This document shows positions 1,431 to 23,111 of a stretch of 64,000 nt of DNA, piece after piece. The notes beneath the pieces were generated by a model. The model was not told the DNA's origin, ran no database searches, and saw only the letters and a list, made by a program, of their open reading frames with translations. The stretch's first letter is position 1. Every line of letters begins with the position of its first letter. Both the position numbers and the translations under genes were made by a program. The stretch spans positions 480,001 to 544,000 of the forward strand of contig CAWHWQ010000001.1 of assembly GCA_963833095.1 (NCBI GenBank), in the 5' to 3' direction. The DNA is from Vulcanimicrobiota bacterium (lineage in GTDB: Bacteria; Vulcanimicrobiota; Vulcanimicrobiia; Vulcanimicrobiales; Vulcanimicrobiaceae).

Positions 1431-1495
1431 GCGAAAGGCGCTCCGCCCGAGGCTCGCCCCACGCTGCGTGGGGCCCCGAAGTAGACATAACGTCG

Positions 1496-3812: not shown

Positions 3813-3824
3813 ACCTCCATAAAA

Positions 3825-5064
3825 CTAGATGAATCGCCGTATCGTCACAGGCGACCCTATCTCCAAGTCTTCGGCTTCTTCAGGGACGACTATGTATCCA
3901 TCGGCTTGGGCCGTAAGGCTCTACGAGCGCGGAGCGAACCGGCAACGGCCACGCGGTCCAATGATCTGAGTCGCTTTCGGGGTCCCGCTCGGCGCGGACA
4001 GGCACGAACCAGGTCCATCCTTTGCGGGTATGCACGCCGGCGCCAAGACGCGCAGAGAAGGTGGCCGGGGGCAACGGTGCGCCTGCTAGCGCTTCAATGA
4101 TCGGTGCAACCACCGCTTCTAGAATCACCAGCGCCGACGTTGGGTTGCCCGGTAGCCCGATGACCGGCTTGGATCCAACCGCCGCGAGCACCGTCGGCTT
4201 ACCGGGTTTGACCCGCAGCCCATGAACGATGACGCCCGGTGCGCCAAGTGCGGCAATCGCTGCCGGCGTACGATCCATTTCACCCACCGACGAGCCGCCG
4301 GTTACGATCGCCGCATCTGCTTCGGTAAGCGCGCGACGTAAGGCGCGCTCGAGCGCGCCTGGCACATCGGATACGGTCGCCCCGTGAAACGGCTGCGCGC
4401 CCATACCTTGTAGCGCACCAGCCACCGCGTGGCGATTCGAATCGCGCACTTGTCCGGGCGCGGGATGCATGCCGGGCGGCACCAGTTCATCGCCGCTCGA
4501 GATTACCGCGATGCGCGGTCGCGGAAAGACCGGCACCATGGTGACACCGAGCGTTGCTAAGACGCCCATCTGTGGGCCACCGATGCGCGTCCCCCGCGCG
4601 AGCATCGTCACCCCTGCCAGCATGTCGCCCCCGGCCGGGTTGACGTTGGTTCCCGGCTCGAGAACGGTCTCGATAGCAACATTTGCGCCCAGCAAGCGCA
4701 CCTCTTCGATCGGAACGACCGCGTCTGCGCCTTCGGGTACGACGCCGCCGGTCGGAATGCGCAGCGCCTCGCCGGCCTGCAGCGGCAGCGCCCACGGACG
4801 GCCCATCGCGATCTCGCCGGCGATGACAAAGACGCCCGGCCCCCGCGCGCTATCGATCGCAAACCCGTCCATCGCCGAGCGCGGAACGCTTGGATAGTCG
4901 GCGTCGGCGACGATTTGCTCGGCTAAAATGCGACCGCACGCATCCTCGAGCCGGACGCGTTCGGGCGCCCGAGGCGCCACCGCCACACGAGAGAGGAACG
5001 CCGCAACCGCCTGCGCGGGCGACAAAAGATTTTCCTCGAGAAAGACGAAGCCGCGCTGTTCCAT
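3825..5064 (-). CDS. moeA: Molybdopterin molybdotransferase, frameshift near the 3' end
   Basis: SAMDGFA, IPTGG, SSGDEL, DSN, TGGSS, VKPGKP, GLPGNP; C-terminus ...ADGYIVVPEEAEDLEIGSPVTIRRFI* continues in another frame. Confidence 0.92.
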
Positions 5065-6346
5065 GCTCGATATCGCTCTTGTCCGACGCGATCCCGATCG
5101 CGTGCGCCGTTCGGCGCAACGTCGTGGGATCGACGCCTCGTTTGTGGACGAGGTTCTGCGTCTGGATGCGCAGTACCGCTCCGAGTTGGCGGAAGCCGAG
5201 CGGTTGAAAGCTGAAAAGAACGTCCTGTCCGCGCAGATCGCCAAAGCCGCTGACAAAGCGGCGGCGGCGCGCGATTTGCGTCCGCAACTCGACACGATTT
5301 CGGCATCGATCGCGGTGCATGACGAGCAGGCAAAGGCCCTAGCTCCCGACTCGCCGCAGTCTCCGCTGCGCGCGCTGCTCGAGAATACGCCCAATGTACT
5401 CGACGACTCGGTTCCGAGCGGCAGTGATTCCAGCGCAAATGTCCTCGTGCGCACGTGGGGCACGCCGCGCCGGTTCGATTTTGCGCCAAAGCCGCACTAC
5501 GAATTGGGCGAAGCGCACGACATTCTCGATTTCGAGCGCGCGGCCAAACTCTCGGGCAGCCGCTTTTGCGTGCTCAAAGGCAAGGGCGCAAAGCTGCAGC
5601 GGGCGCTCGCGCAGTTTTTCCTGGATCGCGCAACCGCGCGCGGGTATGCGGAGATTGCGCCGCCCGTGCTCGTGACGCGCGAAACGATGTGGAGCACCGG
5701 ACAACTGACCAAATTTTCCGACGCGATGTTCGCGGATCCCGATGCGGACCTGTTCATGATTCCGACTGCCGAGGTGCCGCTGACCGCCCTGCATTCGGGT
5801 GAGATTCTCGACGCGGCCGAGCTTCCGCGCAGGCTGACCGCGCACACGCCGTGTTTTCGTAAAGAGGCCGGCGCCGCGGGAAGAGATACGCGCGGGCTTA
5901 TTCGGCAGCACCAGTTCGAGAAGGTCGAGCTCGTGTCGCTGACGTTACCGGAGGCTTCGTTCGAGATGCTCGAGCAGATGACGGCGGACGCCGAGGCGCT
6001 CCTGCAAGAGCTCGAGCTGCCGTATCGCACGATGCTCTTGTGCGCGGGCGATGTCAGCTTCAACAGCGCCAAGACCTACGATTTAGAGGTATGGCTTCCA
6101 AGCGCGAATACGTATCGCGAAATCAGTTCGTGCTCGAACTGCACCGACTTTCAGGCGCGGCGCGCGTCGATTCGAATGCGCCGCGACGCTAAGGCCAAAC
6201 CCGAGCACGTTCACACGCTCAACGGTTCGGCGCTGGCCGTCGGACGCACGCTGCTCGCGGTCTTGGAAAATTTTCAGCAGGCGGACGGATCGATCGAGAT
6301 TCCGCGCGCGCTCGTGCCATACACCGGCTTCGAGCGCATCGGCTAA
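5063..6346 (+). CDS. serS: Serine--tRNA ligase
   Basis: MLDI N-terminus, PTAEVPL, CFRKEAG, GLIRQHQFEKVE, EISSCSNCTDFQARR, HTLNGS. Confidence 0.98.
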   Translation: MLDIALVRRDPDRVRRSAQRRGIDASFVDEVLRLDAQYRSELAEAERLKAEKNVLSAQIAKAADKAAAARDLRPQLDTISASIAVHDEQAKALAPDSPQSPLRALLENTPNVLDDSVPSGSDSSANVLVRTWGTPRRFDFAPKPHYELGEAHDILDFERAAKLSGSRFCVLKGKGAKLQRALAQFFLDRATARGYAEIAPPVLVTRETMWSTGQLTKFSDAMFADPDADLFMIPTAEVPLTALHSGEILDAAELPRRLTAHTPCFRKEAGAAGRDTRGLIRQHQFEKVELVSLTLPEASFEMLEQMTADAEALLQELELPYRTMLLCAGDVSFNSAKTYDLEVWLPSANTYREISSCSNCTDFQARRASIRMRRDAKAKPEHVHTLNGSALAVGRTLLAVLENFQQADGSIEIPRALVPYTGFERIG

Positions 6347-9674: not shown

Positions 9675-10253
9675 TTAGCGGGTGGAACTACTGCCTGCCG
9701 GCGGCGGCAGCGCGGAGAGCGGAGCAAGCGCAACGGGCGTTTTGAGCGACTTCCACACCTTCTGCGGTGTCGCGGGCAACGTGTCCATGTGTTTAAGGAA
9801 GAGCGCCAGCGTCCAAATCTGGTCGTCGCTCAGTGACTTCGTGAACGCCGGCATGCCGGTCATCCGAATGCCGTGCTTGATGGTCCAAAACGTCTGGCCA
9901 GCGGGGTCATCCTCGACGCCGTGCTTGGCGAGCTGCGGTGCGTGCACGTAAAGCCCAATCGCTACCGTGCTCGACTGCTGGCCCGGGACGCCGTGGCAAG
10001 CGGAGCAGTTTTCGCTGTACAGTTTTATCCCGGCCAGATAGTCGGCATCCGTCGCGGCAATCGGGTTCGGCTGGGTCGGCGCCTCACGGGCGACCGTTGC
10101 GTGGAGCGAGCGTGACGCTGCCCAACGCTCCAACCGCGACGGTTTCGCATCAGCGTTGGCCGGAATCAACAACCCCTGGGTGATACCCACATAGCCAACC
10201 ACGAGCGCGAAGACGATGGTCGCAAGTACGCCAAGAATGAATCCCTTGAGCAC
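9675..10253 (-). CDS. Membrane-anchored c-type cytochrome
   Basis: N-terminal TM segment, CSACH heme motif, GIRMTGMPAF; SD AAAGGAG. Confidence 0.92.
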   Translation of the reverse strand: MLKGFILGVLATIVFALVVGYVGITQGLLIPANADAKPSRLERWAASRSLHATVAREAPTQPNPIAATDADYLAGIKLYSENCSACHGVPGQQSSTVAIGLYVHAPQLAKHGVEDDPAGQTFWTIKHGIRMTGMPAFTKSLSDDQIWTLALFLKHMDTLPATPQKVWKSLKTPVALAPLSALPPPAGSSSTR

Positions 10254-10274
10254 TGTTTCTCCTTTAGGACGGGT

Positions 10275-11186
10275 ATGGATTCGCAGATCAAAGCACAGTT
10301 CCCCGACGAGCAATCCGCCGACGGCGAGTTCGTTCGCCAAGAAGATCACTTCCGTGGCTGGGTCTCGGCCGATGGGCACAGCGGCTTCCCGGCCGTCGCC
10401 GGTCGATACCAGCTCTTTGTTTCACTTGCCTGCCCGTGGGCGCATCGCACGATCATCATGCGCAAGCTCAAGCGCCTCGACGCTGCGATTCCGATGACGA
10501 TCGTCGATCCGATTCGCGACGAACGAGGCTGGCGCTACGGTACCCATTTCTTGAGCGAACTCTACGCGGCGAGCGATCCGACCTATCGTGGCCGAGTGAC
10601 AGTCCCAGTGCTCTGGGACATGCAAACCAAACGGATCGTCAGCAACAACGACGATGACATCCTACGGATGTTTGAAACCGAGTTCGACGCGATCGGCGAC
10701 CCCGAGCCGGATTTTTATCCGCGCGAATATCGCACCGAGATCGACGCGCTCAACGCGGAGATCTTCCACGAGCTCAACGACGGCGTCTATCAGGCCGGCT
10801 TCGCCACCAGCCAGTCCGCGTACGAAGAAGCCGCCTACCGCGTCTTCGCGATGCTGGATCGTTTGGAGGAGCGTCTTACGACGCGGCGCTTTCTCTTCGG
10901 CAAGAAACCGGTTGAGACCGATTGGCGCGCGTTTGTGACGCTGATTCGCTTCGATCCGGTCTATTACGGTCACTTCAAGTGCAATCTGCGCCGGATCGTG
11001 GACTACCCCAATCTCTACGGCTACCTACGCGATCTCTACCAGTATCCTGGCGTCGCGCAGACGGTCGACTTCGATCACATCAAGCGCCACTACTACTACA
11101 CTCACGACGACATCAATCCGACCCGCATCGTGCCGATCGGCCCGCTACAATATCTCGAGATGCCCGCGCTCCGCGAACATCTTTAG
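10275..11186 (+). CDS. yqjG: Glutathionyl-hydroquinone reductase (Xi-class GST, YqjG-like)
   Basis: ACPWAHR, TVPVLWD, GVYQAGFA, RFDPVYYGHFKCN, INPTRIVPIGP. Confidence 0.93.
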   Translation: MDSQIKAQFPDEQSADGEFVRQEDHFRGWVSADGHSGFPAVAGRYQLFVSLACPWAHRTIIMRKLKRLDAAIPMTIVDPIRDERGWRYGTHFLSELYAASDPTYRGRVTVPVLWDMQTKRIVSNNDDDILRMFETEFDAIGDPEPDFYPREYRTEIDALNAEIFHELNDGVYQAGFATSQSAYEEAAYRVFAMLDRLEERLTTRRFLFGKKPVETDWRAFVTLIRFDPVYYGHFKCNLRRIVDYPNLYGYLRDLYQYPGVAQTVDFDHIKRHYYYTHDDINPTRIVPIGPLQYLEMPALREHL

Positions 11187-11448: not shown

Positions 11449-11838
11449 CTAGCGGCTGGCCAAACGCACGAGCGTAACGCCGGCAGCTGCGGCGAGGAAT
11501 CCGAAGCCGACCGATGACGCAAGATAGACAAGCGCCGGGAAAACGCCCTGTTCGAGCAACGTGAACGCTTCAAGCGAAAACGACGAAAAGGTCGTGTAAC
11601 CGCCGAGTACGCCGGTCGCGAGCAAAACACGAAGAAATGGGGTCATACCTAGCGCGCGCGTCGCAGCCAGCTGCGCGATGATGCCGATGCAGAAGCTTCC
11701 CGATACGTTGATGAAAAGCGTGCCGTAAGGAAAACCGGGTCCGAGGCGCTGCAGAAAAACTTGCCCGATGACGTAACGCAGCACGCCGCCGATCGCCGCG
11801 CCGACCGCGACCGCGACCACGGCACGCCACTCGATCAC
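11449..11838 (-). CDS. crcB: Fluoride efflux channel Fluc/CrcB
   Basis: GAAIGGVLRY, FPYGTLFINVSGSF, TGVLGGYTTFSSFSLE. Confidence 0.97.
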   Translation of the reverse strand: MIEWRAVVAVAVGAAIGGVLRYVIGQVFLQRLGPGFPYGTLFINVSGSFCIGIIAQLAATRALGMTPFLRVLLATGVLGGYTTFSSFSLEAFTLLEQGVFPALVYLASSVGFGFLAAAAGVTLVRLASR

Positions 11839-12173
11839 GTTTTGCCTCGCGAGATACGCATCAACTCGAGGTTCTCGAGCGTAATCAAACCCTCGCTCAC
11901 CATCGAACGCAGCGTCGGCAGAAAGGCCAGAATCTTCGCCTCTTCTTCGATCACCTCGATGAGGGTCGGCAGGTTCGTCGACTGATCGAAGTTGCGCGCC
12001 GCGTGCACGGTCTTGTGAACGCCGAAGCCTTCGATCCCTTTGAGCACCGTTGCTCCCGCAAATCCCGCCGCCTTGAGCGCTTCGACGAGCGCCATATAAA
12101 GCGGACGGCCATCGAAACGGTCGTCCTCGTCAACGAAGATGCGTAGGAGTTTTCCAGTCGTTCGGTCGGGCAC
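11835..12173 (-). CDS. DUF190 (PII-like) protein, copy 1 (alternative TTG start at 12182)
   Basis: LLRIFVDEDD, AGATVLKGIEGFG, NLPTLIEVIE, EGLITLE; coupled to crcB. Confidence 0.92.
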   Translation of the reverse strand: MPDRTTGKLLRIFVDEDDRFDGRPLYMALVEALKAAGFAGATVLKGIEGFGVHKTVHAARNFDQSTNLPTLIEVIEEEAKILAFLPTLRSMVSEGLITLENLELMRISRGKT

Positions 12174-12225
12174 GTTGGCCAATTCCCCCCGCAACCCGCG
12201 ATCGCCCGCAGGGAGGCTTTGCCTG

Positions 12226-12255
12226 TTGCCACGACGGCGCCTCTTCGCGTATAGT
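12226..12255 (+). promoter_or_regulatory. Sigma-70-type promoter for the riboswitch/hyf transcript
   Basis: TTGCCA (12226-12231), 18 nt spacer, TATAGT (12250-12255), 11 nt before the aptamer. Confidence 0.65.
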
Positions 12256-12266
12256 AGTGGCAACTC

Positions 12267-12311
12267 AGCGATGAAGCTCGCTTAACGCCCTCCCGGGCTG
12301 ATGGCTTCTAC
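12267..12311 (+). ncRNA. Fluoride riboswitch (crcB motif) aptamer
   Basis: AGCGATGAAGCTCGCT-TAAC-GCCCTCCCGGGC-TGATGGCTTCTAC: P1 AGCGA/TCGCT, P2 GCCC/GGGC, pseudoknot GAAGC/GCTTC, conserved GAUG, UGAUG and CUAC. Confidence 0.93.
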
Positions 12312-12346
12312 TCAAGACCGCCCGTACTTTGAGTGGAGCTTTTTTT
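12304..12346 (+). terminator. Intrinsic terminator forming the riboswitch expression platform
   Basis: GCTTCTACTCAAG pairs with TTTGAGTGGAGC, followed by 7 T; the 5' arm is the pseudoknot strand of the aptamer. Confidence 0.8.
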
Positions 12347-13295
12347 GTTACAAAGTATCGCGATCAATCTCTGCCAAGTCGCGTTTGTCTGTGGGCTCTC
12401 CCCGCTTGTGGCCGGCATTCTTGCCAAGCTCAAGGAGTTGACGCAGTCCAAGCGCGGGCCCAGTATTTGGCAGCCCTACCGCGACCTGCGCAAGCTCTTC
12501 CAAAAGGACGAGGTCATCTCGAACGAGAGCACGTGGATCTTCCGCGCAACACCGTTCGTCGTCTTCGTTGTCCCCCTCGCCGTCACTCTGCTGATTCCAG
12601 TACTCACGAACTTCCCGCTCTTCTTTGCCTTCGCCGGGGACATGCTCGCAGCGGGCTTCATTCTCGCCCTCTCGGGCTTTTTCTTGACGCTTGCCGCAAT
12701 CGATGCGGGCAACCCCTACGGGGTGATGGGTGCGAGCCGCACACGCATGGTTGGAGTGCTGGTCGAACCCGTGATCATCGTCGCACTTTTCACCGTCTCC
12801 TTCGTTGCGAACTCGACGATTCCGTACATCGTGCAACAGCATTGGGTGACTCCACCGTCCAACTTTTTTTCCGCATCGCACGTACTCGTGCTGATCGCGT
12901 TCTTCATGGTCATCCTAGCCGAAACCGGCCGCATTCCGGTCGATAACCCGAGCGGGCACTTCGAATTGGCGATGATCGATAAATCAAAGACGCTCGAGTT
13001 TTCCGGACCGTCGATGGCGTTGGTCAAGTGGGGCGGCTATATGAAATTTGTCGTCCTCTCGTGCGTATTGCTCAATGTCTTTCTCGCGCCGTGGGGCCTC
13101 TCGCCGTATCCATTACCACTCGCTATTGCGTCCGCCGCATTTTGGATATTCGTGAAGATCCTGGTTCTGATCGGCGTCGTCGTTTTCGTGGAATCGTCGT
13201 TTTCGAAACTTCGGCTCTTTCGCATCGCGGAATTCGTTGGATTCTCTTTCATTGCGTCGGTAACCGCAATGATCACGCAACTCTTACACCTGTGA
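12333..13295 (+). CDS. hyfC: HyfC/HycD/NuoH-like membrane subunit
   Basis: QSKRGPSIWQPYRDLRKL, AETGRIPVDNP..HFELAMI, LEFSG; start uncertain (GTG 12333 or TTG 12345). Confidence 0.88.
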   Translation: MELFLLQSIAINLCQVAFVCGLSPLVAGILAKLKELTQSKRGPSIWQPYRDLRKLFQKDEVISNESTWIFRATPFVVFVVPLAVTLLIPVLTNFPLFFAFAGDMLAAGFILALSGFFLTLAAIDAGNPYGVMGASRTRMVGVLVEPVIIVALFTVSFVANSTIPYIVQQHWVTPPSNFFSASHVLVLIAFFMVILAETGRIPVDNPSGHFELAMIDKSKTLEFSGPSMALVKWGGYMKFVVLSCVLLNVFLAPWGLSPYPLPLAIASAAFWIFVKILVLIGVVVFVESSFSKLRLFRIAEFVGFSFIASVTAMITQLLHL

Positions 13296-13314
13296 GCGCC
13301 GGAGAACACACGAC

Positions 13315-13980
13315 ATGACGACGTGGCTTTACGACCTCAACGCCTTGGTACTCGGATTATTTGTCCTCTGCGCGATCGGCATGGCGGTCATGCGTCAGGT
13401 CGGGGCCTGCTTACAGGTATTCGTAATCCAATCGCTGCTCTTGGCGGCCTCCGCCTTTCTTTTGGGCGGATCGCCGTGGTCATGGCATCTCTTTGCGCTC
13501 GGCTGCGTTACCATCGCGAGCAAAGCCGTACTGATTCCATGGATACTACGCGCGCTGGTGCCGGGCGAGGTCTACGCACGACGCGAACTTTCGCAGGCGA
13601 TCGGCGTTCCGGCAATTCTCTTGGCGACGCTGGCCCTCGTCCTCGCCGGATATGCGTTTGCCCGCCCACTCAATGCGGCGGCGCCAAGTCTCTCCGCTGC
13701 GAACGTTTCGCTGGGGGCTGCAGGCCTCTTTATCGCGCTCCTGTCGCTCGCGGTGCGCCGTGAAGCGGTTCCGCAAATTCTCGGAATCTTGGCGATGGAG
13801 AACGGCGCCTTTCTCGCCGGCATCGCGATTGCTCCGGACTTTCCGCTCATCGCCGAACTCGCGATCGCATTCGATGTTCCGCTGCTCGCGTTCATCGTGG
13901 CGTTGCTCACCCGCGCCGTCTACCATCACATCGGGTCAACCGAGATCGCCAAGCTCTCGACACTGCGGGAGGCCCCGTGA
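13315..13980 (+). CDS. hyfE: HyfE-like membrane subunit
   Basis: KAVLIPWIL, QILGILAMENG, PLIAELAIAFD. Confidence 0.85.
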   Translation: MTTWLYDLNALVLGLFVLCAIGMAVMRQVGACLQVFVIQSLLLAASAFLLGGSPWSWHLFALGCVTIASKAVLIPWILRALVPGEVYARRELSQAIGVPAILLATLALVLAGYAFARPLNAAAPSLSAANVSLGAAGLFIALLSLAVRREAVPQILGILAMENGAFLAGIAIAPDFPLIAELAIAFDVPLLAFIVALLTRAVYHHIGSTEIAKLSTLREAP

Positions 13981-15404
13981 CCCTACTGCCCTTTGCTATC
14001 GCCGGGACGCCTCTTGCGGCCGCCGCACTTCTCGCGCTGCCGCGAAGCGAACGAATCGCCGGCGTCGTCACGGTGGTCGCGGCATCGCTTTCATTCGTGC
14101 TGGCCGTCACGCTTATTATCGGCGTGCGCTTGCACGGGCCGCTCATTGCAATCCCGCACTTCGTCGAGATCGACGGCTTCGGGGCCCTACTGGCGCTTTT
14201 GATCGCACTCGTTGCCACGACCGCGGCGCTCTTTTCCTACGGCTACATCAGGCACGAAGATCCGAATCCGCGACGCGTCAGGCTCTATTATGCGAATTTC
14301 AATCTCTTCGTCTTCTCTATGCTCACCATTCCGCTCACCGTCGAGCTCGGGATGGTGTGGATCTTCGTCGAGTTGACCACGCTGCTCTCGGTGATGCTCG
14401 TCAGCTATGAAAACACGCGCGCGGCACTCGAAGCGGCCTGGAAGTACATGGTGCTCACGCTGTTGGGTGCGACCGTTGCAGTACTCGGTGTTCTCGTTCT
14501 CTTTTGGGCGCTGCACCAGACCGGATCGACCGACTTCACCTGGAACGGCCTGCTCGCTCATGCGGCAGCGATGCCCCCGGCGCTGGTAAAAGGCGCCTTT
14601 GTTTTGCTCCTGATCGGTTACGGCGCAAAGATCGGCCTCGTTCCGTTGCACACGTGGCTACCTGACGCGCACAGCCAGGCGCCTTCGCCGGTGTGCGCGC
14701 TGCTTTCCGGCATTGAAACGACCGCCGTGCTCTACGTGCTCCTGCGGTTGCGCAACGTCTTTGCGCGTGTTCCTGGAACCCATGTGGGGACGTGGTTTGC
14801 GGTTTTCGGAGCGATCTCCGTCGTCGTGGCGGTGCTGTTAATCGTCCAGACGCGCGATTACAAGCGACTGTTCGCATTTTCGACGGTCGAACACATGGGG
14901 ATCATTCTGGCCGCGGCAAGCCTGGGGACGCCGCTTGGCGACGCCGCCGTCGTCTGGCAGATCGTCGCGCACGCCGTCACCAAATCATTCTCTTTCTACG
15001 CAGCCGGATCGACGCTTCTCGTTACCGGAACGCGGGCGATCGATGAGGTGAGTGGATTGCTCGGGCGCTCGCGTACTGCTGCCGCGGCGCTGATCGCCGG
15101 CGCGCTTGCGATCTCGGGTGCCCCGCCATTCGCGGTCTTCTTGAGTGAACTCGCCGTGCTGCGGGCCGGCATCGATGCGCATGCGTACCTTCTAACAGGA
15201 GTGCTGGCCGTGGCGATCGTGATTGGCTTCTGCGCAATGCTCTGGCACGTCACCGGAATGGTCAGCGGGGAATCGCGACCGAAAGCGCCGGAACAAGCAG
15301 CACTCCCGCGATCCTGTCGCGCGGCGCTGGCAATTGCAGCGGTTCCCATGCTGCTTTTAGGTCTATGGGTTCCGCTCTCGATCGGAACGTTATGGACGCC
15401 GTAA
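13977..15404 (+). CDS. hyfF: HyfF-like antiporter (NuoL/M/N, MrpD-type) subunit
   Basis: LEAAWKY, KIGLVPLHTWLPDAHSQAPSPVCALLSG, YKRLFAFSTVEHMG. Confidence 0.9.
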   Translation: MTLLPFAIAGTPLAAAALLALPRSERIAGVVTVVAASLSFVLAVTLIIGVRLHGPLIAIPHFVEIDGFGALLALLIALVATTAALFSYGYIRHEDPNPRRVRLYYANFNLFVFSMLTIPLTVELGMVWIFVELTTLLSVMLVSYENTRAALEAAWKYMVLTLLGATVAVLGVLVLFWALHQTGSTDFTWNGLLAHAAAMPPALVKGAFVLLLIGYGAKIGLVPLHTWLPDAHSQAPSPVCALLSGIETTAVLYVLLRLRNVFARVPGTHVGTWFAVFGAISVVVAVLLIVQTRDYKRLFAFSTVEHMGIILAAASLGTPLGDAAVVWQIVAHAVTKSFSFYAAGSTLLVTGTRAIDEVSGLLGRSRTAAAALIAGALAISGAPPFAVFLSELAVLRAGIDAHAYLLTGVLAVAIVIGFCAMLWHVTGMVSGESRPKAPEQAALPRSCRAALAIAAVPMLLLGLWVPLSIGTLWTP

Positions 15405-16879
15405 TGGTGCCGGCCGAACACCTCGTGGCCGAGGTCGCACGATTACACGCGGAGCAAAAGCGTCTCGGGACGATTGTCGCAACCGAGGCAGCCGGCACGA
15501 TCGTGCTTCGCTATTTTTTCTACGACGTCGCTGCGCCCGACTGGGTGGAGCTTGTCGTCGAGGTGGATCCGGCGCAGCGCTGTGCTCCAAGCATTACCGG
15601 CATCACCATCGCGGCGGATTGGCAAGAGCGCGAGATTGAGGATCTGTTCGGTATCAGCTTCTCCGGCCATCCGCGGCTTGGCGACTTCGTATTACACGAC
15701 GACAAATGGGCCGAAGATCTCGGGCTCATGCGCCCACAGGTTCCCGATGAGGCCATCGCGCAGACGCGCCGGCACTGGGCGCCGCTGCGCGTCCTGCAGG
15801 AAGACGGCGCATTCGTCATGCCGGTTGGGCCGATTTACTCGGGCGATGCAGAGTCCTCGCTCTTCTTGCTCGAGACCGTTGGCGAAGACGTGGTGCGCGC
15901 GGTCCCGCGCCTCTTTTATAAGTTTCGTGCAATCGAGCGACTCGCCCAAGGGCGCAGCATGCAGGACGTGCTGCTGCTCGCCGAGCGATGCAACGGAACC
16001 GCCGCGTTCGGAAATGGGTGGGCCTATTGCCGCGCCGTAGAGTCCGCGCTGGGCGTCCACGTTCCGCCCGAAGCAATCGCATGGCGAACGTTCTTGGCGG
16101 AACTCGAGCGCGTCCGCCACCATGCCGGCGCGATTCGCGCGATCTGCGATTCGACCGCGCTCGGGGTTGCTGCGGCACAAGCCGCCGCATACGAAGAGCG
16201 GCTGCTCCGCGTGAGCGAAGGATTGACCGGGCATCGGTATCTCTTCGGTGCGCTGTGCATCGGCGGCATTTCCTTCACGCCGGAGCGGGCGGACGCCGAA
16301 CATGCGTACGAGTTGGTGCGCGCGCTGATCGATGAGCTGCAACCGTTCCGCGCGCTGCTCGAACGCACGAGCAGCTTTCTGGACCGTATCGAAGCTGTCG
16401 GTGTGATCGGCACGGCGCAGGCGCAGGCCTTCGAACTCGTCGGCCCGATCGCACGCGCAAGCGGTGTTGGGATCGACCTGCGCGTCGCGCAGTTCTACGG
16501 CGTCTACGATGCGCTGACGTTCGAGGTGCCTGTCGAGGAAGAGGGCGATGGGTTTGCGCGCCTGCGCGTGCTCTTCCGCGAAATTGGCGCGTCGGTGCAG
16601 CTGATGGCCCAGTCGTTGCGCCTCCTGAGCGGTGGACCAGTGCGCACGCAAGTTCAGACACGTGACGGGGCGGCGCTAGGATGGACGGAAACGCCGCAGG
16701 GCGCTTCGCTCTGTTGGGTCGCGCTGCGTCCCGACGGCCAGGTGACGCGCTTTCGCATTTCGCCGCCGTCGTTTTGTAATTGGCACGGTTTTCACATTGC
16801 TACCGAAGACTTCGCCTTCCAAGATCTCCCAATTATCCTGGCCACGATGGGCCTTTCGGTCGCTGAAAACGATCGATGA
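15392..16879 (+). CDS. hyfG: HyfG/HycE-like large subunit (NuoC+D) lacking the Ni-binding CxxC motifs (Ehr type)
   Basis: WQEREIEDLFG, AELERVRHH, VGPIARASG; L1 site reads ERCNGTAAF, L2 site reads MGLSVAENDR. Confidence 0.88.
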   Translation: MDAVMVPAEHLVAEVARLHAEQKRLGTIVATEAAGTIVLRYFFYDVAAPDWVELVVEVDPAQRCAPSITGITIAADWQEREIEDLFGISFSGHPRLGDFVLHDDKWAEDLGLMRPQVPDEAIAQTRRHWAPLRVLQEDGAFVMPVGPIYSGDAESSLFLLETVGEDVVRAVPRLFYKFRAIERLAQGRSMQDVLLLAERCNGTAAFGNGWAYCRAVESALGVHVPPEAIAWRTFLAELERVRHHAGAIRAICDSTALGVAAAQAAAYEERLLRVSEGLTGHRYLFGALCIGGISFTPERADAEHAYELVRALIDELQPFRALLERTSSFLDRIEAVGVIGTAQAQAFELVGPIARASGVGIDLRVAQFYGVYDALTFEVPVEEEGDGFARLRVLFREIGASVQLMAQSLRLLSGGPVRTQVQTRDGAALGWTETPQGASLCWVALRPDGQVTRFRISPPSFCNWHGFHIATEDFAFQDLPIILATMGLSVAENDR

Positions 16880-16892
16880 AAGGAGCACGCAC

Positions 16893-17609
16893 ATGAGTTG
16901 GTTTTGGCGTGGGTTGATCGCGGGCACGCGAACCGAACGATATGACGAGTCAAAGCCTGCGCCGGTCGGCACGACGCCGGGGATGCCGGTAACGACGACG
17001 TTCGCGGATCCATCCGCGCCACGCGAACTCGCGACGCTCTGCCCCACCGGCGCGATCGAGGCGCAAGGCGAAACGGCACTCCTCGATCGCGATCGCTGCG
17101 TTCATTGTTTGCGATGCGCACCGAAACGCGGCTCGCAGGCGCTCACCTGGAACGACAGCTTCGCGTGGGCGCACGCGCCGGACGGGAACGCAGTGCGAGC
17201 GCTCCCGGCACGCTTTCGCCGCTCGATGCATGTGCGGGTTGTCGACGCAGGCGACTGCGGATCGTGCCTCAACGAAATAGTCCACCTCAACGACCCTTTC
17301 TATAACATGCACCGGTTTGGTTTTTTCATCACGCCGACGCCACGCCAAGCCGACGTTCTGCTGGTTGTCGGGCCGGTGACGCAACAGATGCGCGAAGCCT
17401 TGCTCACCGCCTATCAAGCAATGCCCGAGCCCAAACGCGTCGTGGCCGTGGGCGTGTGCGCCGTGAGCGGAGGCATATTTGGGCCCAGCGTGATGTGCGC
17501 GGCAGGAGCGGGCGACGTGCTCCCGGTCGACGTCGTGGTGCCGGGCTGCCCTCCTCCGCCTTTGGCTATTCTCAACGCGCTCATGGAGGTCTGCAACCGC
17601 AAGCCGTGA
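16893..17609 (+). CDS. hyfI: HyfI/NuoB-like small subunit with fused N-terminal ferredoxin-like segment
   Basis: LCPTGAI and CVHCLRC, then DCGSCLNE, TPRQADVLLVVGP, GVCA, PGCPPPP; SD AAGGAG. Confidence 0.9.
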   Translation: MSWFWRGLIAGTRTERYDESKPAPVGTTPGMPVTTTFADPSAPRELATLCPTGAIEAQGETALLDRDRCVHCLRCAPKRGSQALTWNDSFAWAHAPDGNAVRALPARFRRSMHVRVVDAGDCGSCLNEIVHLNDPFYNMHRFGFFITPTPRQADVLLVVGPVTQQMREALLTAYQAMPEPKRVVAVGVCAVSGGIFGPSVMCAAGAGDVLPVDVVVPGCPPPPLAILNALMEVCNRKP

Positions 17610-19738
17610 CGAATTTGCTGCTCGCCGCCTATGCGTCGACGTTTGCCCTTGCACTGCTGGGAGCAATTGCCGCGCTTGTATTTCCGTCGCGCGCGCGCAC
17701 CTTGCTCGCGTGGTTTTCGCTTGCGGCGTCGCTCGCGGCGCTCGCGGCGGGTACCGTCTCATTCTTCGTTCCCGATACCCATGTGGCGCTGTGGGCTCTG
17801 CCCGCGTACGGCCCGCTGTTGCTCAAGACCACGCCGCTGGGCGCGTTCTCGACTTGCATTGCCGCGTTGATCTACGTTCCGGTCTCGATCTACAGCGGCG
17901 CTTACCTTCGGCGCTACGAAGGCGCTTATTCGGTCGCCTCGTTTGCTCTGTGGTACTTCCTGCTCTTCGCGTCGGTCATCGCCGTCTTCGTCTGCGCCGA
18001 CGTCGTCTCGTTTTTCGTCGTCTGGGAAATCGCAGCGATTGCGAGCGCAGCGCTGGTTGCCTTCGAGTGGCGCGACCGCTTGTGCACGCGCGCGGCCTAT
18101 CTCATGCTGGCCATGACGGAGGCCGGTACGGCGACAGCAATCCTCGCGATGTTGATCGTCTTCGCCGGCTCGGGCTCCTATGCGTTTGCACCGGGCGCAG
18201 GCGCGCATCTGCCGCCGCAGCTCGGATGGTCCGCTGCTTTACTTGCGCTCTTCGGTTTTGGCGTGAAGGCTGGGCTTGCGCCGGTGAACTCGTGGCTGCC
18301 GCGCGCCTACCCCGTCGCGCCCGCCAACGTCTCGACGATCCTTTCCGCGATCGTCGTAAATCTCGGTGTGTACGGCATCCTGCTCGTGAACGTCGAATTT
18401 GCGCCGCTGCATTCCCTCGCGTTCGGCGCCCTGATGCTTGCAATCGGCGCCGTTTCAGCTCTCCTCGGCATCCTGTATGCCTCGGTAAGCGATGACGCAA
18501 AAGCAGTCCTGGCCTACAGTTCGATCGAGAATCTGGGAATCGTCGTCGCGGGCATGGGCGCGGGCCTCGTCTTTCTCGACGCAGGGAAGCCCGCCTTCGC
18601 GGCGCTCGGATTTGCCGCTGCACTCTACCACCTGCTAAATCATTCCACGTACAAGGCGTTGTTGTTTCTCGGAATCGGCGTCGTCGATATGCACGCTGGG
18701 ACCCGGAGCATCGATCGTATGGGCGGATTGATCCGGTTGCTGCCCGCGACGGCAGCGTGCGTATTGATCGGTTGTCTTGCGATCTCGGCGATCCCGCCGC
18801 TCAATGGATTTACGAGCGAATGGCTCACACTGCAGTCGCTGCTGCGCAGTTCGGAACTGGCGTCCATTGGGATGCGCGTGACCTTCGCACTCTCCGGCGC
18901 CGTTCTTGCGCTCACCGCAGCACTGGCGATCACCACCTTCGTCAAGATGTTCGGCATGATCTTCCTCGGCGTCGCACGCACGAATTGGGCCGATCGACCG
19001 ATCACCGAAGCTCCCCTTGCGATGCGCGCGGCAATGTATCTCCTGGCCGCCGCGTGCGTGCTACTCGGCATCGGACCGACGTATGTGCTCGGTGTCGTGG
19101 ATCGCGCCTTGCGCGACCTGTCCGGATCGATCGCGTCCTACACGCTCGTTCCGGGATTCCTCTCTCCGTATCCTGGACGGGCACCATTGCCCGCCGGCTT
19201 CGTTGCAACGTTCCACGCATTGGGTGCACAAGTCGGCATGCATGTGGTTCCCGGTCACGGCTTGGTCGTGATGCTGCGCGGCGGCAGCGCAAACCCGGTG
19301 GTGTTTGCGATGTCCACCACCTATCTGTGTCTCATTTTATTCGTACTGTTCACGGCGACATACGCGGGCGTACGTCTGGCTGCGCGCGGTCGCCTCGTGC
19401 AACGTGCGCTCGCGTGGGCAGGCGGACTGCGCGTATTGGCCCCGAGCATGACCTACACGGGTACGGGGTTCTCGAATCCGATCCGCGTGATCTTCGAAGC
19501 GGTGTTCCAACCGGCAACGAACGACGAGCGCGAGACCGTCCAGGAGCATTTTCGTACCGCGATACGGCGCGAACGCCGGAACGACTACATCGGCGACCGG
19601 CTCGTGATAGTACCTGCTACGCGCGCGGTACAGTGGTCTGCGCGCCTGCTCGCCCGCATGCATCACGGCCACCTCGACGCCTACGTGCTCTATGCGCTGT
19701 TCACGCTACTGCTTGCGCTCGGAATCATGTTCGGCTAA
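17606..19738 (+). CDS. hyfB: HyfB/HycC-like antiporter subunit
   Basis: FFVVWE, KAGLAPVNSWLP, LAYSSIENLG, NHSTYKALLFLG, PPLNGFTSEW, MTYTGTGFSNP. Confidence 0.9.
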   Translation: MTNLLLAAYASTFALALLGAIAALVFPSRARTLLAWFSLAASLAALAAGTVSFFVPDTHVALWALPAYGPLLLKTTPLGAFSTCIAALIYVPVSIYSGAYLRRYEGAYSVASFALWYFLLFASVIAVFVCADVVSFFVVWEIAAIASAALVAFEWRDRLCTRAAYLMLAMTEAGTATAILAMLIVFAGSGSYAFAPGAGAHLPPQLGWSAALLALFGFGVKAGLAPVNSWLPRAYPVAPANVSTILSAIVVNLGVYGILLVNVEFAPLHSLAFGALMLAIGAVSALLGILYASVSDDAKAVLAYSSIENLGIVVAGMGAGLVFLDAGKPAFAALGFAAALYHLLNHSTYKALLFLGIGVVDMHAGTRSIDRMGGLIRLLPATAACVLIGCLAISAIPPLNGFTSEWLTLQSLLRSSELASIGMRVTFALSGAVLALTAALAITTFVKMFGMIFLGVARTNWADRPITEAPLAMRAAMYLLAAACVLLGIGPTYVLGVVDRALRDLSGSIASYTLVPGFLSPYPGRAPLPAGFVATFHALGAQVGMHVVPGHGLVVMLRGGSANPVVFAMSTTYLCLILFVLFTATYAGVRLAARGRLVQRALAWAGGLRVLAPSMTYTGTGFSNPIRVIFEAVFQPATNDERETVQEHFRTAIRRERRNDYIGDRLVIVPATRAVQWSARLLARMHHGHLDAYVLYALFTLLLALGIMFG

Positions 19739-20091
19739 GCGTGCGTCGACGTAGGTCTGGAAAGGCGCAGGTATTGCGCCGCTTCAACCGTGAGCAAGCC
19801 CTCGCCCATCATCGTCTCGAGTTCGCCGATCAGCGGCTCGAGTACCGACCAGTCATCCACGACTTCGATGAGGATCGGAAGGTTCGGCAGCCACGAAAAA
19901 ACTTTGGCCATGTGCACTTGGCCATGCCCACCGAAGCCTTCGATCCCGCGAAAGACCGTGGCGCCCGCGACACCGCGCTTGCGCAAGAATTCGACGATCG
20001 CCGTGTAGGTGGGCTGCACGCCGCGCCGATCCGCTTCGTCGACGAAGATCCGCAGCAATTTGCCGTCCCGAAAGCCCTGGGCGCTTTGCAT
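19735..20091 (-). CDS. DUF190 (PII-like) protein, copy 2
   Basis: LLRIFVDEAD, AGATVFRGIEGFG, NLPILIEVVD; SD GGAGG. Confidence 0.92.
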   Translation of the reverse strand: MQSAQGFRDGKLLRIFVDEADRRGVQPTYTAIVEFLRKRGVAGATVFRGIEGFGGHGQVHMAKVFSWLPNLPILIEVVDDWSVLEPLIGELETMMGEGLLTVEAAQYLRLSRPTSTHA

Positions 20092-20124: not shown

Positions 20125-20211
20125 AGGAGAGGGAGAGATTCGAACTCTCGGAACGCTTTCGCGTCCTGCGGTTTTCAAGACCGCTGCATTAAACCACTCT
20201 GCCACCTCTCC
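20125..20211 (-). tRNA. tRNA-Ser (anticodon UGA), CCA not encoded
   Basis: GGAGAGG acceptor stem, GCGGT-CTTGAAA-ACCGC anticodon arm, long variable arm, GTTCGAATC T loop. Confidence 0.96.
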
Positions 20212-20371
20212 GGGCGCAGACCCGTATTTTGGTGAGGACCGGCCTCCGACCTTGCGTCGCTCAGCCATGTCCTAGACAGAGGCCGCCGGATCGTCACATT
20301 TTGGGATGCCTCCGGCCCACTTCGCGGGGCTACGATGAGTGGACCACTTCGAAGGGGGAGACGATACAACA

Positions 20372-21886
20372 ATGCCAGCGAAGAAACCCAACATTCTGAT
20401 ACTCTGGGGCGACGATGTCGGCATCTGGAACATCAGCAAATTCAGCAACGGGATGATGGGGTACCGGACCCCCAACATCGACCGGGTTGCCAACGAAGGC
20501 GGCCTCTTCACCGACTACTATTCGCAGCAGAGCTGCACCGCGGGCCGCGCCTGCTTCATCACCGGTCAGAATCCGATCCGGACCGGCCTTACCAAGGTCG
20601 GCATGCCCGGCGCCACGGTTGGCCTTCATAAGGAAGACCCGACAATCGCCGAGATGCTCAAGCCCCTCGGCTACGCGACCGGTCAGTTCGGCAAGAACCA
20701 CCTCGGCGATCGCAACGAATTTTTGCCGACGGTGCACGGCTTCGATGAATTCTTCGGCAACCTGTATCACCTCAACGCCGAAGAAGAGCCCGAGCTGCCG
20801 GATTATCCCAAGGATCCTCGGTTCAAAGCCATGTTCGGGCCGCGCGGCGTGCTGCATTGCAAGGCGACTGACAAAGACGACGCAACCGTCGACCCGCGCT
20901 TCGGCAAAGTCGGCAAACAGACGATCCAAGATACCGGCCCGCTCACCAAGAAGCGCATGGAGACGATCGACGAGGAGATCACGTCCGCCGCAATGGCGTG
21001 GATGGAGAAGCAAGCCAAAGCCGATCAACCGTTCTTCCTGTGGTACAACTCGACCGCGATGCACTTCCGCACCCACGTGGCCGAAAAGAACATCGGCAAG
21101 AGCGGTCAAGATCCGTACAGCGATCGCATGGTCGTGCACGACGAACAGATCGGCATGATGCTCGATAAGCTCAAAGAGCTCGGGCTCGAGGACAATACGA
21201 TCGTCATGTACTCGACCGACAACGGTCCGGAGAACGACACCTGGCCGGACGGCGCCACGACCCCATTCCGCGGGCAAAAGGACTCCAACTGGGAAGGCGG
21301 ATGGCGCGTGCCGTGCTTCTTGCGCTGGCCGGGCGTCATCAAACCCGGATCAGTCTACAACGGCATCGTCTCGCACATCGACATGTTCCCGACGTTGCTC
21401 GCTGCTGCCGGTAATCCGGACGTCACCGAGCAATTGCTTAAGGGCACCACGGTAAATGGCCAGAAGTACAACGTCCACCTCGATGGCTACAACCAAATTC
21501 CCTACTTAAAGGGTGACGTAAAAGAAAGCCCGCGAAACGCGCTCGTGTACTTCAGTGATGACGGCGACGTTATCGCGGTGCGCGTCGGCGATTGGAAGTT
21601 CAACCTGTCGGTGCAACGGGCAAACACGATGCAGCAGTGGGCGGAGCCCTTCATCAAACTTCGCTTGCCGCATATCATGAGTATGCGCCGCGATCCGTTC
21701 GAGCGAGCCGATTTCAACTCAAACACGTACTTTGACTGGATGGTCGATCACGTGCCGCAGTTGTACATGATGCAAGCGGTGATCGCAGGTCAGATCGAGG
21801 ACTTCGTCAAGTTCCCACCGCGTCAAAAGCCGGCCTCGTTCAACCTTGATTCGGTCATGGAACAGGTCAAGACACCACACGGCTAG
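20372..21886 (+). CDS. Arylsulfatase (Cys-type, formylglycine-dependent)
   Basis: KPNILILWGDD, SCTAGRA, GKNHLG, HGFDEF, STDNG, WEGGWRVP. Confidence 0.95.
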   Translation: MPAKKPNILILWGDDVGIWNISKFSNGMMGYRTPNIDRVANEGGLFTDYYSQQSCTAGRACFITGQNPIRTGLTKVGMPGATVGLHKEDPTIAEMLKPLGYATGQFGKNHLGDRNEFLPTVHGFDEFFGNLYHLNAEEEPELPDYPKDPRFKAMFGPRGVLHCKATDKDDATVDPRFGKVGKQTIQDTGPLTKKRMETIDEEITSAAMAWMEKQAKADQPFFLWYNSTAMHFRTHVAEKNIGKSGQDPYSDRMVVHDEQIGMMLDKLKELGLEDNTIVMYSTDNGPENDTWPDGATTPFRGQKDSNWEGGWRVPCFLRWPGVIKPGSVYNGIVSHIDMFPTLLAAAGNPDVTEQLLKGTTVNGQKYNVHLDGYNQIPYLKGDVKESPRNALVYFSDDGDVIAVRVGDWKFNLSVQRANTMQQWAEPFIKLRLPHIMSMRRDPFERADFNSNTYFDWMVDHVPQLYMMQAVIAGQIEDFVKFPPRQKPASFNLDSVMEQVKTPHG

Positions 21887-21902
21887 CATCATCACTGCAC
21901 TC

Positions 21903-23111
21903 ATGCACGACGAAGTGAGTGCGTTCTACGAGATGCATCCTTACCCACCGGCGGTAGACGACTTGGTCGCCTACCGCCGGCTTTGGGACGACGCGCGCCG
22001 GCGCGCCGACGCGCATCTCTTCTGGCCGAACGATGCGTATCGCGACGACCGGAGCATCCTCGTCGCCGGGTGCGGCACCTCACAAGCCGCGCATTATGCG
22101 GTGCGCTGGCCGAACGCGCGCGTCGTTGGTATTGACGTCAGCGCGAACAGCATCGCCTTCACGCAAGAACTTAAGCGAACGCACACGCTGCAAAATCTCG
22201 AGGTCTACCAACTGCCGGTCGAGCGTGCAGCCGAACTCGGGCAAACCTTCGATCACGTCGTCTGCACGGGGGTGCTGCATCACCTTGCCGACCCCGACGC
22301 GGGTTTGCGAGCCTTGCACGACGCTCTGGCACCAAACGGTGCGCTGCACGTGATGGTGTATGCGCCGTACGGCCGCGCCGGCGTGTACATGCTCCAAGAC
22401 TATTGCCGGCGCTTGGGCATCGCCACAACCAACGACGCTATCCACGACCTCGCCGCAACGCTGCGCGCCCTTCCGCCCGATCATCCGCTCGTGCCGTTGC
22501 TGCGCAACTCACCCGATTTTGCGGATACTGCCGCGATGGCGGATGCGCTGTTGCATCCGCGCGATCGCGCCTACTCGGTTCCGCAACTCTACGAATTTCT
22601 CGCTCACGCGGATCTGGAGTTTGGGCGCTGGATTCGCCAAGCGCCATATCTGCCTCAGTGCGGGGCCATCGCCGCAACGCCACACGCGGCGAAGATCGCG
22701 TCGCTAGCGCCGCGCGAGCAACACGCGGCGATCGAACTCTTCCGCGGCACGATGGTGCGCCATAGCGCCGTCGCGTACCGCAGCGATCGACCGCCGCACG
22801 CGCACGGCGACTTTGACGGCGTCGACTGGCCGAACTACGTGCCCATCCGGCTGCCCGAAACGATCGCGGTACGTGAGCGCGTCCCGGCCGGTGCAAGCGC
22901 TGTGTTGATCAATCGCAATCATCGCTACACCGATCTCTACCTCCCTATCGACGCGACGCAAGGGGCGTGGCTCGACGGCATCAACGATCAGCGCACCATC
23001 GCCCAGATCGTCGGCGAGAACGGCGACCGCAACCGTGCGCGCGCGTTCTTTGCGCAGCTCTGGGAGTGGGACCAGGTTGTGTTTGATACCTCCGGGAAGC
23101 CCCCGCCATGA
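21903..23111 (+). CDS. Class I SAM-dependent methyltransferase
   Basis: FYEMHPYP, ILVAGCGT, FDHVVCTGVLHHL, DALLHPRD. Confidence 0.9.
   Translation: MHDEVSAFYEMHPYPPAVDDLVAYRRLWDDARRRADAHLFWPNDAYRDDRSILVAGCGTSQAAHYAVRWPNARVVGIDVSANSIAFTQELKRTHTLQNLEVYQLPVERAAELGQTFDHVVCTGVLHHLADPDAGLRALHDALAPNGALHVMVYAPYGRAGVYMLQDYCRRLGIATTNDAIHDLAATLRALPPDHPLVPLLRNSPDFADTAAMADALLHPRDRAYSVPQLYEFLAHADLEFGRWIRQAPYLPQCGAIAATPHAAKIASLAPREQHAAIELFRGTMVRHSAVAYRSDRPPHAHGDFDGVDWPNYVPIRLPETIAVRERVPAGASAVLINRNHRYTDLYLPIDATQGAWLDGINDQRTIAQIVGENGDRNRARAFFAQLWEWDQVVFDTSGKPPP

Follow-up and report, generated by a model that had tools for sequence, protein, structure and literature searches.

What does a six-subunit membrane complex with the gene order of a formate hydrogenlyase do under the control of a fluoride riboswitch? 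The question is raised by a locus in a Vulcanimicrobiota bacterium (assembly GCA_963833095.1; 2.8 Mb in 8 contigs, 80.7% complete), where a fluoride aptamer faces the operon hyfC-E-F-G-I-B. The locus lies in a stretch of 64,000 nt from contig CAWHWQ010000001.1 (positions 480,001 to 544,000 of the forward strand), referred to here as the window; coordinates without a locus name are positions in that stretch. An earlier reading of the letters without database searches (the sequence-only reading) had described the aptamer, the six hyf-like genes, a crcB gene and two DUF190 genes, and every one of these parts was located where that reading had put it. By definition, the complex is of the energy-converting hydrogenase-related (Ehr) type, reportedly treated by Marreiros et al. 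in 2013. We think the odds somewhat favor a fluoride-induced and probably redox-driven pump for protons or other cations, which would offset the proton load caused by entry of HF and exit of F−.

Is the operon under the control of fluoride? The sequence-only reading had recognized a fluoride aptamer and proposed a covariance search for it. The Rfam model RF01734 matches positions 12258-12317 (+) with 36.1 bits, above its gathering score of 34 (E = 2.5e-6 in the 64-kb window), and the match covers model positions 1-64 of 64. It is the sole RF01734 match in the whole 2.8-Mb assembly. Helices P1 and P2 form in the window aptamer, as does the pseudoknot that joins the P1 loop to the 3′ tail, with 13 of 13 pairs. 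When this aptamer was aligned with 22 Rfam-positive aptamers of related loci (n = 23), 94.6% of the cells in P1, P2 and the pseudoknot were paired, and in 11 of the 13 pairs both partners had changed; no shuffle out of 500 was as good, and slid controls paired at most 59.5% of cells. Indeed, the pseudoknot of the window itself, GAAGC...GCUUC, is a compensated form of the usual GGAGY...RCUCC, a change of G to A on one strand being matched by C to U on the other. A sigma-70-like promoter site, TTGCCA-18-TATAGT (12226-12255, +), ends 2 nt before the aptamer. This site is a consensus match only, with 10 of 12 consensus positions matched and one site found where shuffles gave a mean of 0.2.

The RNA that follows the aptamer suggests how the switch would work. 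The minimum free energy (MFE) fold computed for 12253-12356 has a hairpin spanning 12303-12340 and, right after it, seven U (12341-12347), and together these form the predicted expression platform (12303-12347, +). Because the 5′ arm of the predicted hairpin contains the 3′ strand of the pseudoknot (12304-12308), the aptamer and the hairpin are mutually exclusive. As modeled, the hyfC leader has the classical architecture of a fluoride ON switch. The 3′ arm of the hairpin holds a GGAG, immediately ahead of the two start candidates of hyfC (GTG 12333 or TTG 12345), so the leader may control translation as well as transcription. A simple terminator scan did not call this hairpin because its loop is 11 nt long; it is known from the MFE fold.

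How general is the link to fluoride? A query with a single protein recovered no relatives, and an alignment of homologues was used as the query instead. This alignment-based scan of 185,579 species genomes gave at least 465 relatives confirmed by tblastn, and the best 80 were analyzed (two of the loci, L069 and L070, are duplicates). The 80 loci span more than 10 phyla, and many are, by record title, metagenome-assembled genomes (MAGs) from peat, bog and soil; among the phylum labels are Eremiobacterota/Vulcanimicrobiota, Acidobacteriota, Verrucomicrobiota, Planctomycetota, Gemmatimonadota, Actinomycetota, Bacillota, Nitrospirota, Pseudomonadota, Thermodesulfobacteriota, Binatota and Chlamydiota. 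The genes are ordered hyfC-E-F-G-I-B in each of these 80 loci, up to where its contig ends. Riboswitches were sought with our own covariance model, built from the 23 aptamers and therefore circular for scores on those same 23, which gave 144 matches at E ≤ 0.01 in the 80 loci and the window. Seventy loci can be evaluated, having hyfC and at least 300 nt upstream of it; the other ten end at a contig edge. Every one of the 70 has a riboswitch match upstream of the operon. It lies less than 400 nt before hyfC in 58 loci, is followed by crcB and/or DUF190 and then hyfC in 8, and lies 1.7-3.2 kb upstream in 4, where a gene for a dynamin-family GTPase is the first open reading frame (ORF) after the riboswitch. 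With this recurrence in every evaluable locus, the arrangement is far beyond chance.

Other evidence points the same way. Rfam's own model gives a match at gathering level at the expected place in 10 of 14 loci tested, and 39 of 40 carrier genomes have at least one RF01734 match with E ≤ 0.001, three to eight matches in one genome being frequent. A crcB gene lies within 10 kb in 26 of the 80 loci (24 of the 48 loci with full flanks), a DUF190 gene in 35, and one or the other in 36. Enolase is a classic target of fluoride, and among the 30 ORFs scanned directly after hyfB, 7 are enolase genes (L024, L035, L039, L044, L053, L056 and L057). Among 101 genomes sampled from the window's own phylum, 6 have the complex and 40 the riboswitch, which is present in 6 of 6 Ehr carriers vs 34 of 95 non-carriers. 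The sequence-only reading had regarded the locus as a dedicated fluoride module and suggested a survey of co-occurrence across genomes; the linkage does recur among relatives, and membership of the complex in a fluoride regulon stands on the riboswitch, on the adjacent crcB and DUF190 genes and on enolase.

The fluoride link also has a boundary. A quick tree separates the window's clade of 17 rows from a multi-phylum clade of 63 rows; phylum labels change 20 times on this tree, the minimum being 12, and these changes would fit some horizontal spread, MAG labels being imperfect. A second, more divergent Hyf-like cluster adjoins the riboswitch-controlled one at L009 16384-21472 (+) and L007 ~75-5567 (+). 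Its large subunit is also free of the cysteines (...AEHVSGATASSH..., C-terminus ...QAEVDR), and our covariance model gives no riboswitch match upstream of it. Thus, the fluoride link marks this clade and not every Ehr.

Could the complex be a hydrogenase, as its gene order suggests? The large subunit HyfG (15365-16879, +) is a fused NuoC-NuoD protein of the EhrL type. In its alignment with E. coli HycE (7z0s_E, E 2.2e-48), the HycE motif R-V-C-G-I-C is aligned with R-C-N-G-T-A, and the first pair of Ni-Fe cysteines is replaced by N and A. The C-terminus of HyfG, ...LSVAENDR, is free of cysteine, and its S and E stand at what we take to be the positions of the second Ni-Fe pair. The HycE match envelope reaches the last residue of HyfG, presumably the equivalent of the C-terminus of mature HycE. 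All four Ni-Fe cysteines are thus missing, and the description of the complex as nickel-less by the sequence-only reading is correct. HyfG also lacks the canonical site of complex I: in the alignment with Aquifex NuoCD (7q5y_B), ‘rmdYis’ is aligned with ‘rcnGta’ and ‘gtHg’ with ‘daEs’, giving Gly and an invariant Glu163 in place of the NuoCD Tyr and His that we assume to be quinone ligands. All 19 aligned HyfG homologues (49-61% identity) lack the Ni-Fe ligands and have an invariant LSVAENDR, and mean column identity in this alignment is 67%. Features common to 19 homologues argue for a conserved design and not for decay.

The rest of the genome is consistent with this picture. HypC and HypD have no matches in the assembly, although at 80.7% completeness this does not prove their absence. 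The only NiFeSe_Hases match is the Ehr large-subunit gene itself, below the cut-off of that family. There are no hyp or formate dehydrogenase (FDH) genes in the window, as had been noted from the letters, and the two molybdopterin oxidoreductases of the genome both sit on other contigs. With the Ni-Fe ligands missing from 19 homologues, no HypC or HypD matches and no FDH nearby, the view that the operon does not serve H2 metabolism is upheld. From the riboswitch to DUF190b, which converges on the operon, there are just six genes, and FdhF, HycB/HyfA and HycF/HyfH are not among them. None of the six subunits reaches a curated NCBIfam cut-off for Hyf, Hyc or Nuo proteins. The best models of HyfB, HyfF and HyfE are ‘hydrogenase 4 subunit B/F’ and ‘hydrogenase 4 membrane subunit’ (501 vs a cut-off of 667, 322 vs 543, and 55.2 bits vs 136, respectively), and those of HyfG, HyfI and HyfC are of the Nuo type and likewise score below their cut-offs. 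The operon contains neither the NuoEFG input module nor NuoI, NuoA, NuoJ or NuoK. A canonical NuoD is encoded at G000:C1:554595-555397, ~10 kb past the end of the window, so the genome has an ordinary complex I as well.

Which parts of the complex look functional? First, the ion-translocating parts look intact. There are two antiporter-like subunits: HyfF (13977-15404, +), of the NuoM/N and MrpD type (Pfam Proton_antipo_M 159.6 bits; 6cfw_H E 1.6e-34), and HyfB (17606-19738, +), of the NuoL, MrpA and HycC type with a C-terminal extension (identified by Pfam; 7z0s_C E 1.5e-51). HyfB residues E141, K221, K350 and E405 are kept in 69-70 of 70 sequences, and HyfF residues E132, K218, K336 and E391 in at least 71 of 74. 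These align with the Glu of transmembrane helix (TM) 5, the Lys of TM7 and the Glu/Lys of TM12 in MrpA, MbhH and HycC. Histidines H342 and H346 of HyfB and H225 and H332 of HyfF are also kept (at least 93% of the 70-74 sequences). The NuoH/HycD-like membrane subunit HyfC (12333-13295, +; Pfam NADHdh 129.6 bits; 7z0s_D E 3e-35) and the small membrane subunit HyfE (13315-13980, +; no match in the Pfam scan) retain many buried acidic residues, and hyfE is present in every complete related operon.

Second, the electron-transfer parts look largely intact across the family, and fully so in the window operon. The NuoB-type small subunit HyfI (16893-17609, +) has an N-terminal ferredoxin-like extension with the cysteines C50(P)...C69-x2-C72-x2-C75, each kept in 73-75 of 76 sequences; cysteines in this pattern are the ligands of a single [4Fe-4S] cluster in ferredoxins of the clostridial type. 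Each of the 10 N-terminal pieces searched has a hit to a Fer4-type Pfam family with E ≤ 0.01, and three of the pieces, including that of the window, score above the curated cut-off. The AlphaFold model of HyfI (mean pLDDT 89.5) has HycG (7z0s_G) as its best match in the PDB. A fold search with the model gave only NuoB/HycG-type chains, which match the C-terminal half, and the ferredoxin-like assignment therefore comes from the cysteine pattern and the weak Pfam matches. In the window, the NuoB-type cluster has C122, C125, C189 and C219. The first three are present in 76 of 76 HyfI sequences. The fourth (C219, motif PGCPP, 17547-17549) is a Cys in 21 of 76, a set that includes all 17 rows of the window's clade, and C202, located 17 residues before it, is a Cys in 50 of 76.

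How might such a complex help a cell exposed to fluoride? HF, a weak acid, crosses into the cell and dissociates there, and F− exits through Fluc down the membrane potential, as outlined in the available part of one review (PMC11139923). Each cycle of HF in and F− out would thus import one proton and drain the membrane potential. In the proposed mechanism, the leader hairpin and its U-run would halt transcription when fluoride is absent, with the GGAG ahead of hyfC buried. When fluoride is bound, the pseudoknot would take the 5′ arm of the hairpin and the operon would be expressed. The complex would then pump H+ (or Na+), probably driven by redox energy, with reduced ferredoxin at the HyfI extension as the candidate electron donor. 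At low external pH, the cycle of HF influx and F− efflux would acidify the cytoplasm, and the induced pump would restore both the pH and the membrane potential by which F− is expelled. A primary pump would serve the need otherwise served by antiporters without drawing on an existing gradient. Since the Fe-S cysteines and the antiporter Glu and Lys residues are conserved, a redox-driven pump is the best reading of the complex. The sequence-only reading had likewise suggested a redox-coupled ion pump, and this stands in part: seven of eight Fe-S cysteines and the antiporter residues are conserved, but the electron-input module and the acceptor site were not found. Its further suggestion, that the complex exports fluoride itself, gains nothing from the analysis.

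Several points weigh against a redox-driven pump under fluoride control. First, the window aptamer exceeds the Rfam cut-off by just 2 bits. Second, the Ni-Fe cysteines and the quinone Tyr and His are all missing from the HyfG pocket, and the electron acceptor cannot be named. Third, the operon has no NuoEFG, HycB/FdhF or separate ferredoxin, and none of these recurs among the 30 ORFs scanned after hyfB. Fourth, the fourth NuoB-type cysteine of HyfI is N, H, Q or another residue in 55 of 76 sequences. C202 is present in 40 of these 55 and missing in 15. The replacement may reflect a ligand swap or a relaxed cluster, and redox chemistry may be relaxed in much of the family. Fifth, a canonical complex I is already present ~10 kb beyond the window, so that the need for an extra pump would be a matter of argument.

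If the complex is not a redox-driven pump, what else could it be? The variable fourth cysteine in most of the family leaves, as the main rival, a redox-independent exchanger of Na+ or K+ against H+ that resembles the Mrp antiporters and holds the cytoplasmic pH under fluoride, its NuoB/CD/H-like module being a relic with a structural or regulatory role. Such an exchanger would have the function of the Na+/H+ antiporters under riboswitch control, and these make up one of the common classes of fluoride-riboswitch genes according to the available text of the same review (PMC11139923). HyfB and HyfF, in which the antiporter residues are retained, show their highest similarity to MrpA/MrpD, MbhH and HycC; no donor module was found in the operon or among the 30 ORFs after hyfB, and no acceptor site was found in HyfG. 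However, seven Fe-S cysteines are near-invariant over more than 10 phyla, including those of the ferredoxin-like cluster in 73-75 of 76 sequences, and the 67% mean column identity and invariant C-terminus of HyfG are hard to square with a relic. The Mrp antiporters that we know of have no NuoB/D/H module. We regard the exchanger as unlikely, at perhaps a minority share of our confidence.

Less likely again is a redox enzyme that helps through its chemistry and not by pumping. It might act as an electron sink or proton consumer, easing acidification of the cytoplasm or an excess of reductant while glycolysis is blocked by fluoride, or as a fluoride-insensitive substitute for an inhibited energy-conserving enzyme, in the way that the enolase copies under riboswitch control might. 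The conserved Fe-S ligands suit such an enzyme, as do the genes for enolase, phosphofructokinase (PFK), metallophosphoesterase and NUDIX proteins in the same riboswitch islands, and in its available part the review connects shifts in metabolism with the ‘formate hydrogen lyase’ class (PMC11139923). Two intact antiporter-like subunits, joined by a third in 14 of 80 loci, put ion movement at the center, however, and no substrate site can be named. It is quite improbable that the remodeled pocket of the nickel-free HyfG, together with the PII-like DUF190 proteins, makes the complex a machine specific to fluoride that does more than supply proton-motive force. It would then either use redox energy as a primary exporter, working in series with Fluc on fluoride or on protons derived from HF, or be gated by fluoride sensed directly by the protein. 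Such an exporter or fluoride-gated complex would be the first case, within the complex I superfamily, of a function in anion stress and of gating by a ligand. We would give still less credence to a complex that itself moves fluoride, by energized F− export or HF-coupled extrusion. Membership in the regulon fits this, as do the 44 of 80 loci with no crcB or DUF190 within 10 kb, but crcB stands beside the complex in the window and in 26 of 80 loci, which suggests complementing and not replacing the channel, and a crcB missing from a 20-kb locus is uninformative about the rest of the genome. We know of no anion transporter in the complex I superfamily. Finally, the names given in databases (‘formate hydrogenlyase subunit 5’) and the Hyf/Hyc homology and gene order would make the complex a true formate hydrogenlyase or group-4 [NiFe] hydrogenase. 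This reading deserves almost no weight, being refuted at the sequence level by the four Ni-Fe cysteines missing from HyfG and 19 homologues, and opposed by the unmatched HypC and HypD, an operon without FDH, HycB or HycF genes and six subunits that reach no NCBIfam Hyf/Hyc cut-off.

What do the neighboring genes add to the reading of the complex as a fluoride-induced pump? On the left, and on the opposite strand, are crcB (11449-11838, −), which encodes a Fluc fluoride channel of 129 aa (Pfam CRCB 90.8 bits, cut-off 32.9; TIGR00494 85.2 vs a cut-off of 80.45), and DUF190a (11835-12173, −), which encodes a PII-like protein of COG1993 (Pfam DUF190 115.4 bits, cut-off 23.4). The stop of DUF190a overlaps the start of crcB by 4 nt. 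The start of DUF190a is likely GTG 12173, the ORF being open to TTG 12263, and ~85 nt separate this likely start from the aptamer that faces hyfC (12173-12258). No aptamer for crcB-DUF190a was found on the minus strand even at E ≤ 10; back-to-back aptamers do occur in relatives such as L014, L005 and L013. The Ehr operon is thus the only fluoride-switched unit found in this genome, and the crcB channel gene is not part of it. On the right, DUF190b (19735-20091, −; Pfam DUF190 100.1 bits, cut-off 23.4), 50% identical to DUF190a, converges on the operon, its stop (19735-19737) overlapping that of hyfB (19736-19738). The gene is preceded at a distance of 34 nt by tRNA-Ser(TGA) (20125-20211, −), which forms the right-hand border of the cluster. 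Because this tRNA is directly upstream, DUF190b may be transcribed from the tRNA promoter, outside fluoride control. A minus-strand tRNA is also found downstream of hyfB at L005 14731-14817 and L008 15223-15310. A convergent DUF190 downstream of hyfB recurs in L005, L008, L014, L015, L038 and L045. This crcB is the only crcB match in the assembly, and DUF190a and DUF190b are its only two DUF190 genes.

What, then, does DUF190 do? Its coupling to crcB, the loci in which it stands between crcB and hyfC, and its convergent copies tie it to the fluoride regulon and to no particular partner. DUF190 has a weak match to Pfam P-II (23.2 bits), and its relatives in the PDB, 2DCL and 1O51, are the only two DUF190 structures that exist, both from structural genomics. 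PII-type proteins are known to adjoin solute transporters, as in the pairs GlnK-AmtB and SbtB-SbtA. DUF190a resembles these pairs in being a small PII-like protein translationally coupled to a channel gene, and the oligomeric states differ, since Fluc is a dimer and PII proteins are trimers. A structure prediction for two CrcB and three DUF190a copies (score 0.00 in two runs, with controls absent) speaks neither for nor against contact between them. The sequence-only reading had suggested that the DUF190 proteins may act as regulators; the analysis offers no support for regulation of the complex by DUF190. No paper on DUF190 function was found in a full-text literature search, with subscription journals mostly outside its coverage.

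The related loci also show what else the riboswitches control. There are up to four riboswitch matches per locus (for example, L012 1780-6879, L051 16861-21380 and L023 4061-6490). With the window and the duplicate locus excluded, 139 matches remained for a census of the first ORF after each: hyfC in 58, crcB in 10, DUF190 in 10, a Hyf-type gene in 3, none in 3 and another gene in 55. Two short ORFs were dropped from these 55, and the other 53 were scanned with Pfam. They comprise 10 MutS domain V proteins, 8 AAA_16/AAA_22 ATPases, 6 members of the dynamin family, 4 NUDIX proteins, 3 metallophosphoesterases, 2 enolases, one each of PFK, MFS, PQQ dehydrogenase, YkoP, MoxR and CMAS, and 14 without a family. 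Downstream of hyfB, 30 of 50 unlabelled candidate ORFs were scanned. Besides enolase, the genes right after hyfB include those for PFK (L003), Usp (L037) and an IS1595 transposase (L006), and there was no ferredoxin, flavoprotein or formate dehydrogenase among the 30. A second hyfB paralogue provides the third antiporter-like subunit in 14 of 80 loci.

The flanks of the cluster in the window (9675-11186 and 20339-23111) encode a cytochrome c, a GST-like protein, a sulfatase and a methyltransferase by Pfam. These genes have no link to fluoride, and the cluster is therefore a compact unit of 8.6 kb. Elsewhere in the window are an M-box (magnesium) riboswitch (RF00380, 122.7 bits; 49801-49971, +), unrelated to the fluoride cluster, and a weak antiporter-like match at the right edge (63064-63999, −).

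What is new here, and why does it matter? The pairing of the aptamer with ‘formate hydrogen lyase’ genes has been known since 2010, as the available part of that report indicates (PMC2864571), and what appears to be new is the nickel-free Ehr identity of the genes. The fluoride-switched ‘formate hydrogen lyase’ operons of the 80 loci are one clade of nickel-free Ehr. The full-text search, with the coverage given above, found no paper that describes the complex as nickel-free or Ehr or that links Ehr to fluoride; one paper in which both subjects are mentioned (PMC11540253) proved irrelevant. There are several implications. First, Ehr complexes are widespread relatives of complex I whose function is still called unknown in the available parts of two papers (PMC10284858, PMC6349859), and this clade would gain a concrete, testable physiological setting. 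Second, a misleading annotation is corrected. Third, energy supply and pH homeostasis, beyond export, would be a conserved part of fluoride defense. Fourth, the finding may be relevant to the engineering of microbes for the release of fluoride from organofluorines.

How does the complex compare with known systems? It shares six subunit types with E. coli hydrogenase-4 (HyfBCEFGI) and formate hydrogenlyase-1 (Hyc, 7Z0S), and the Hyc complex is the best solved relative of four subunits (HycE at 2.2e-48, HycC at 1.5e-51, HycD at 3e-35 and HycG by fold). Unlike Hyf and Hyc, the window operon has no Ni-Fe cysteines and no HyfA/HycB, HyfD, HyfH/HycF, FdhF or hyp genes; the one-cluster ferredoxin-like extension of HyfI stands in place of the separate HycF; HyfB has the TM7 Lys where E. 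coli HycC has Leu; and control by a fluoride riboswitch sets the operon apart. It agrees much better with Ehr complexes, defined in the available parts of two papers as relatives of group-4 hydrogenases that lack Ni-Fe-coordinating residues and have Mrp antiporter-like subunits (PMC6349859, PMC10284858). Indeed, the window complex has a ligand-free NuoD-type large subunit encoded together with NuoB-, NuoH- and Mrp-like subunits, and MAGs of Nitrospira carry the same type of operon (L041, L065). In the same parts of those papers, the function of Ehr is called unknown or an FDH-Ehr chain is proposed, and fluoride is not mentioned (PMC6349859, PMC10284858). Unlike an Ehr in such a chain, the window operon has a riboswitch and no FDH partner.

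The closest match in regulation is the ‘formate hydrogen lyase’ class of fluoride-riboswitch genes. The available parts of the sources report crcB motifs paired with such genes already in 2010 (Weinberg 2010, PMC2864571), attribute the class to Baker 2012 (as cited in PMC11139923 and PMC8752731), and place it among the commonest riboswitch-controlled enzymes, read as a shift to fermentation or in metabolism (PMC11139923). As described, the class has the same pairing of an aptamer with a Hyf-like operon. The literature takes its name at face value, whereas the operons examined here cannot encode hydrogenases. The Mrp antiporters and the membrane-bound hydrogenase MBH (7QRU, 6Z16, 6CFW) have MrpA/MrpD-like subunits and the conserved Glu/Lys pattern in common with the window complex. 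They differ in that Mrp has seven subunits (MrpA-G) and no redox module, whereas the window operon has NuoB-, NuoCD- and NuoH-like subunits, and in that MBH has a Ni-Fe site, which the window complex lacks. Na+/H+ antiporters are the second commonest class of fluoride-riboswitch genes and are interpreted as serving pH homeostasis, again in the available part of the review (PMC11139923). They are single proteins driven by existing gradients, unlike the six-subunit complex of the window, and the two likely serve the same aim, the homeostasis of pH and ions under fluoride.

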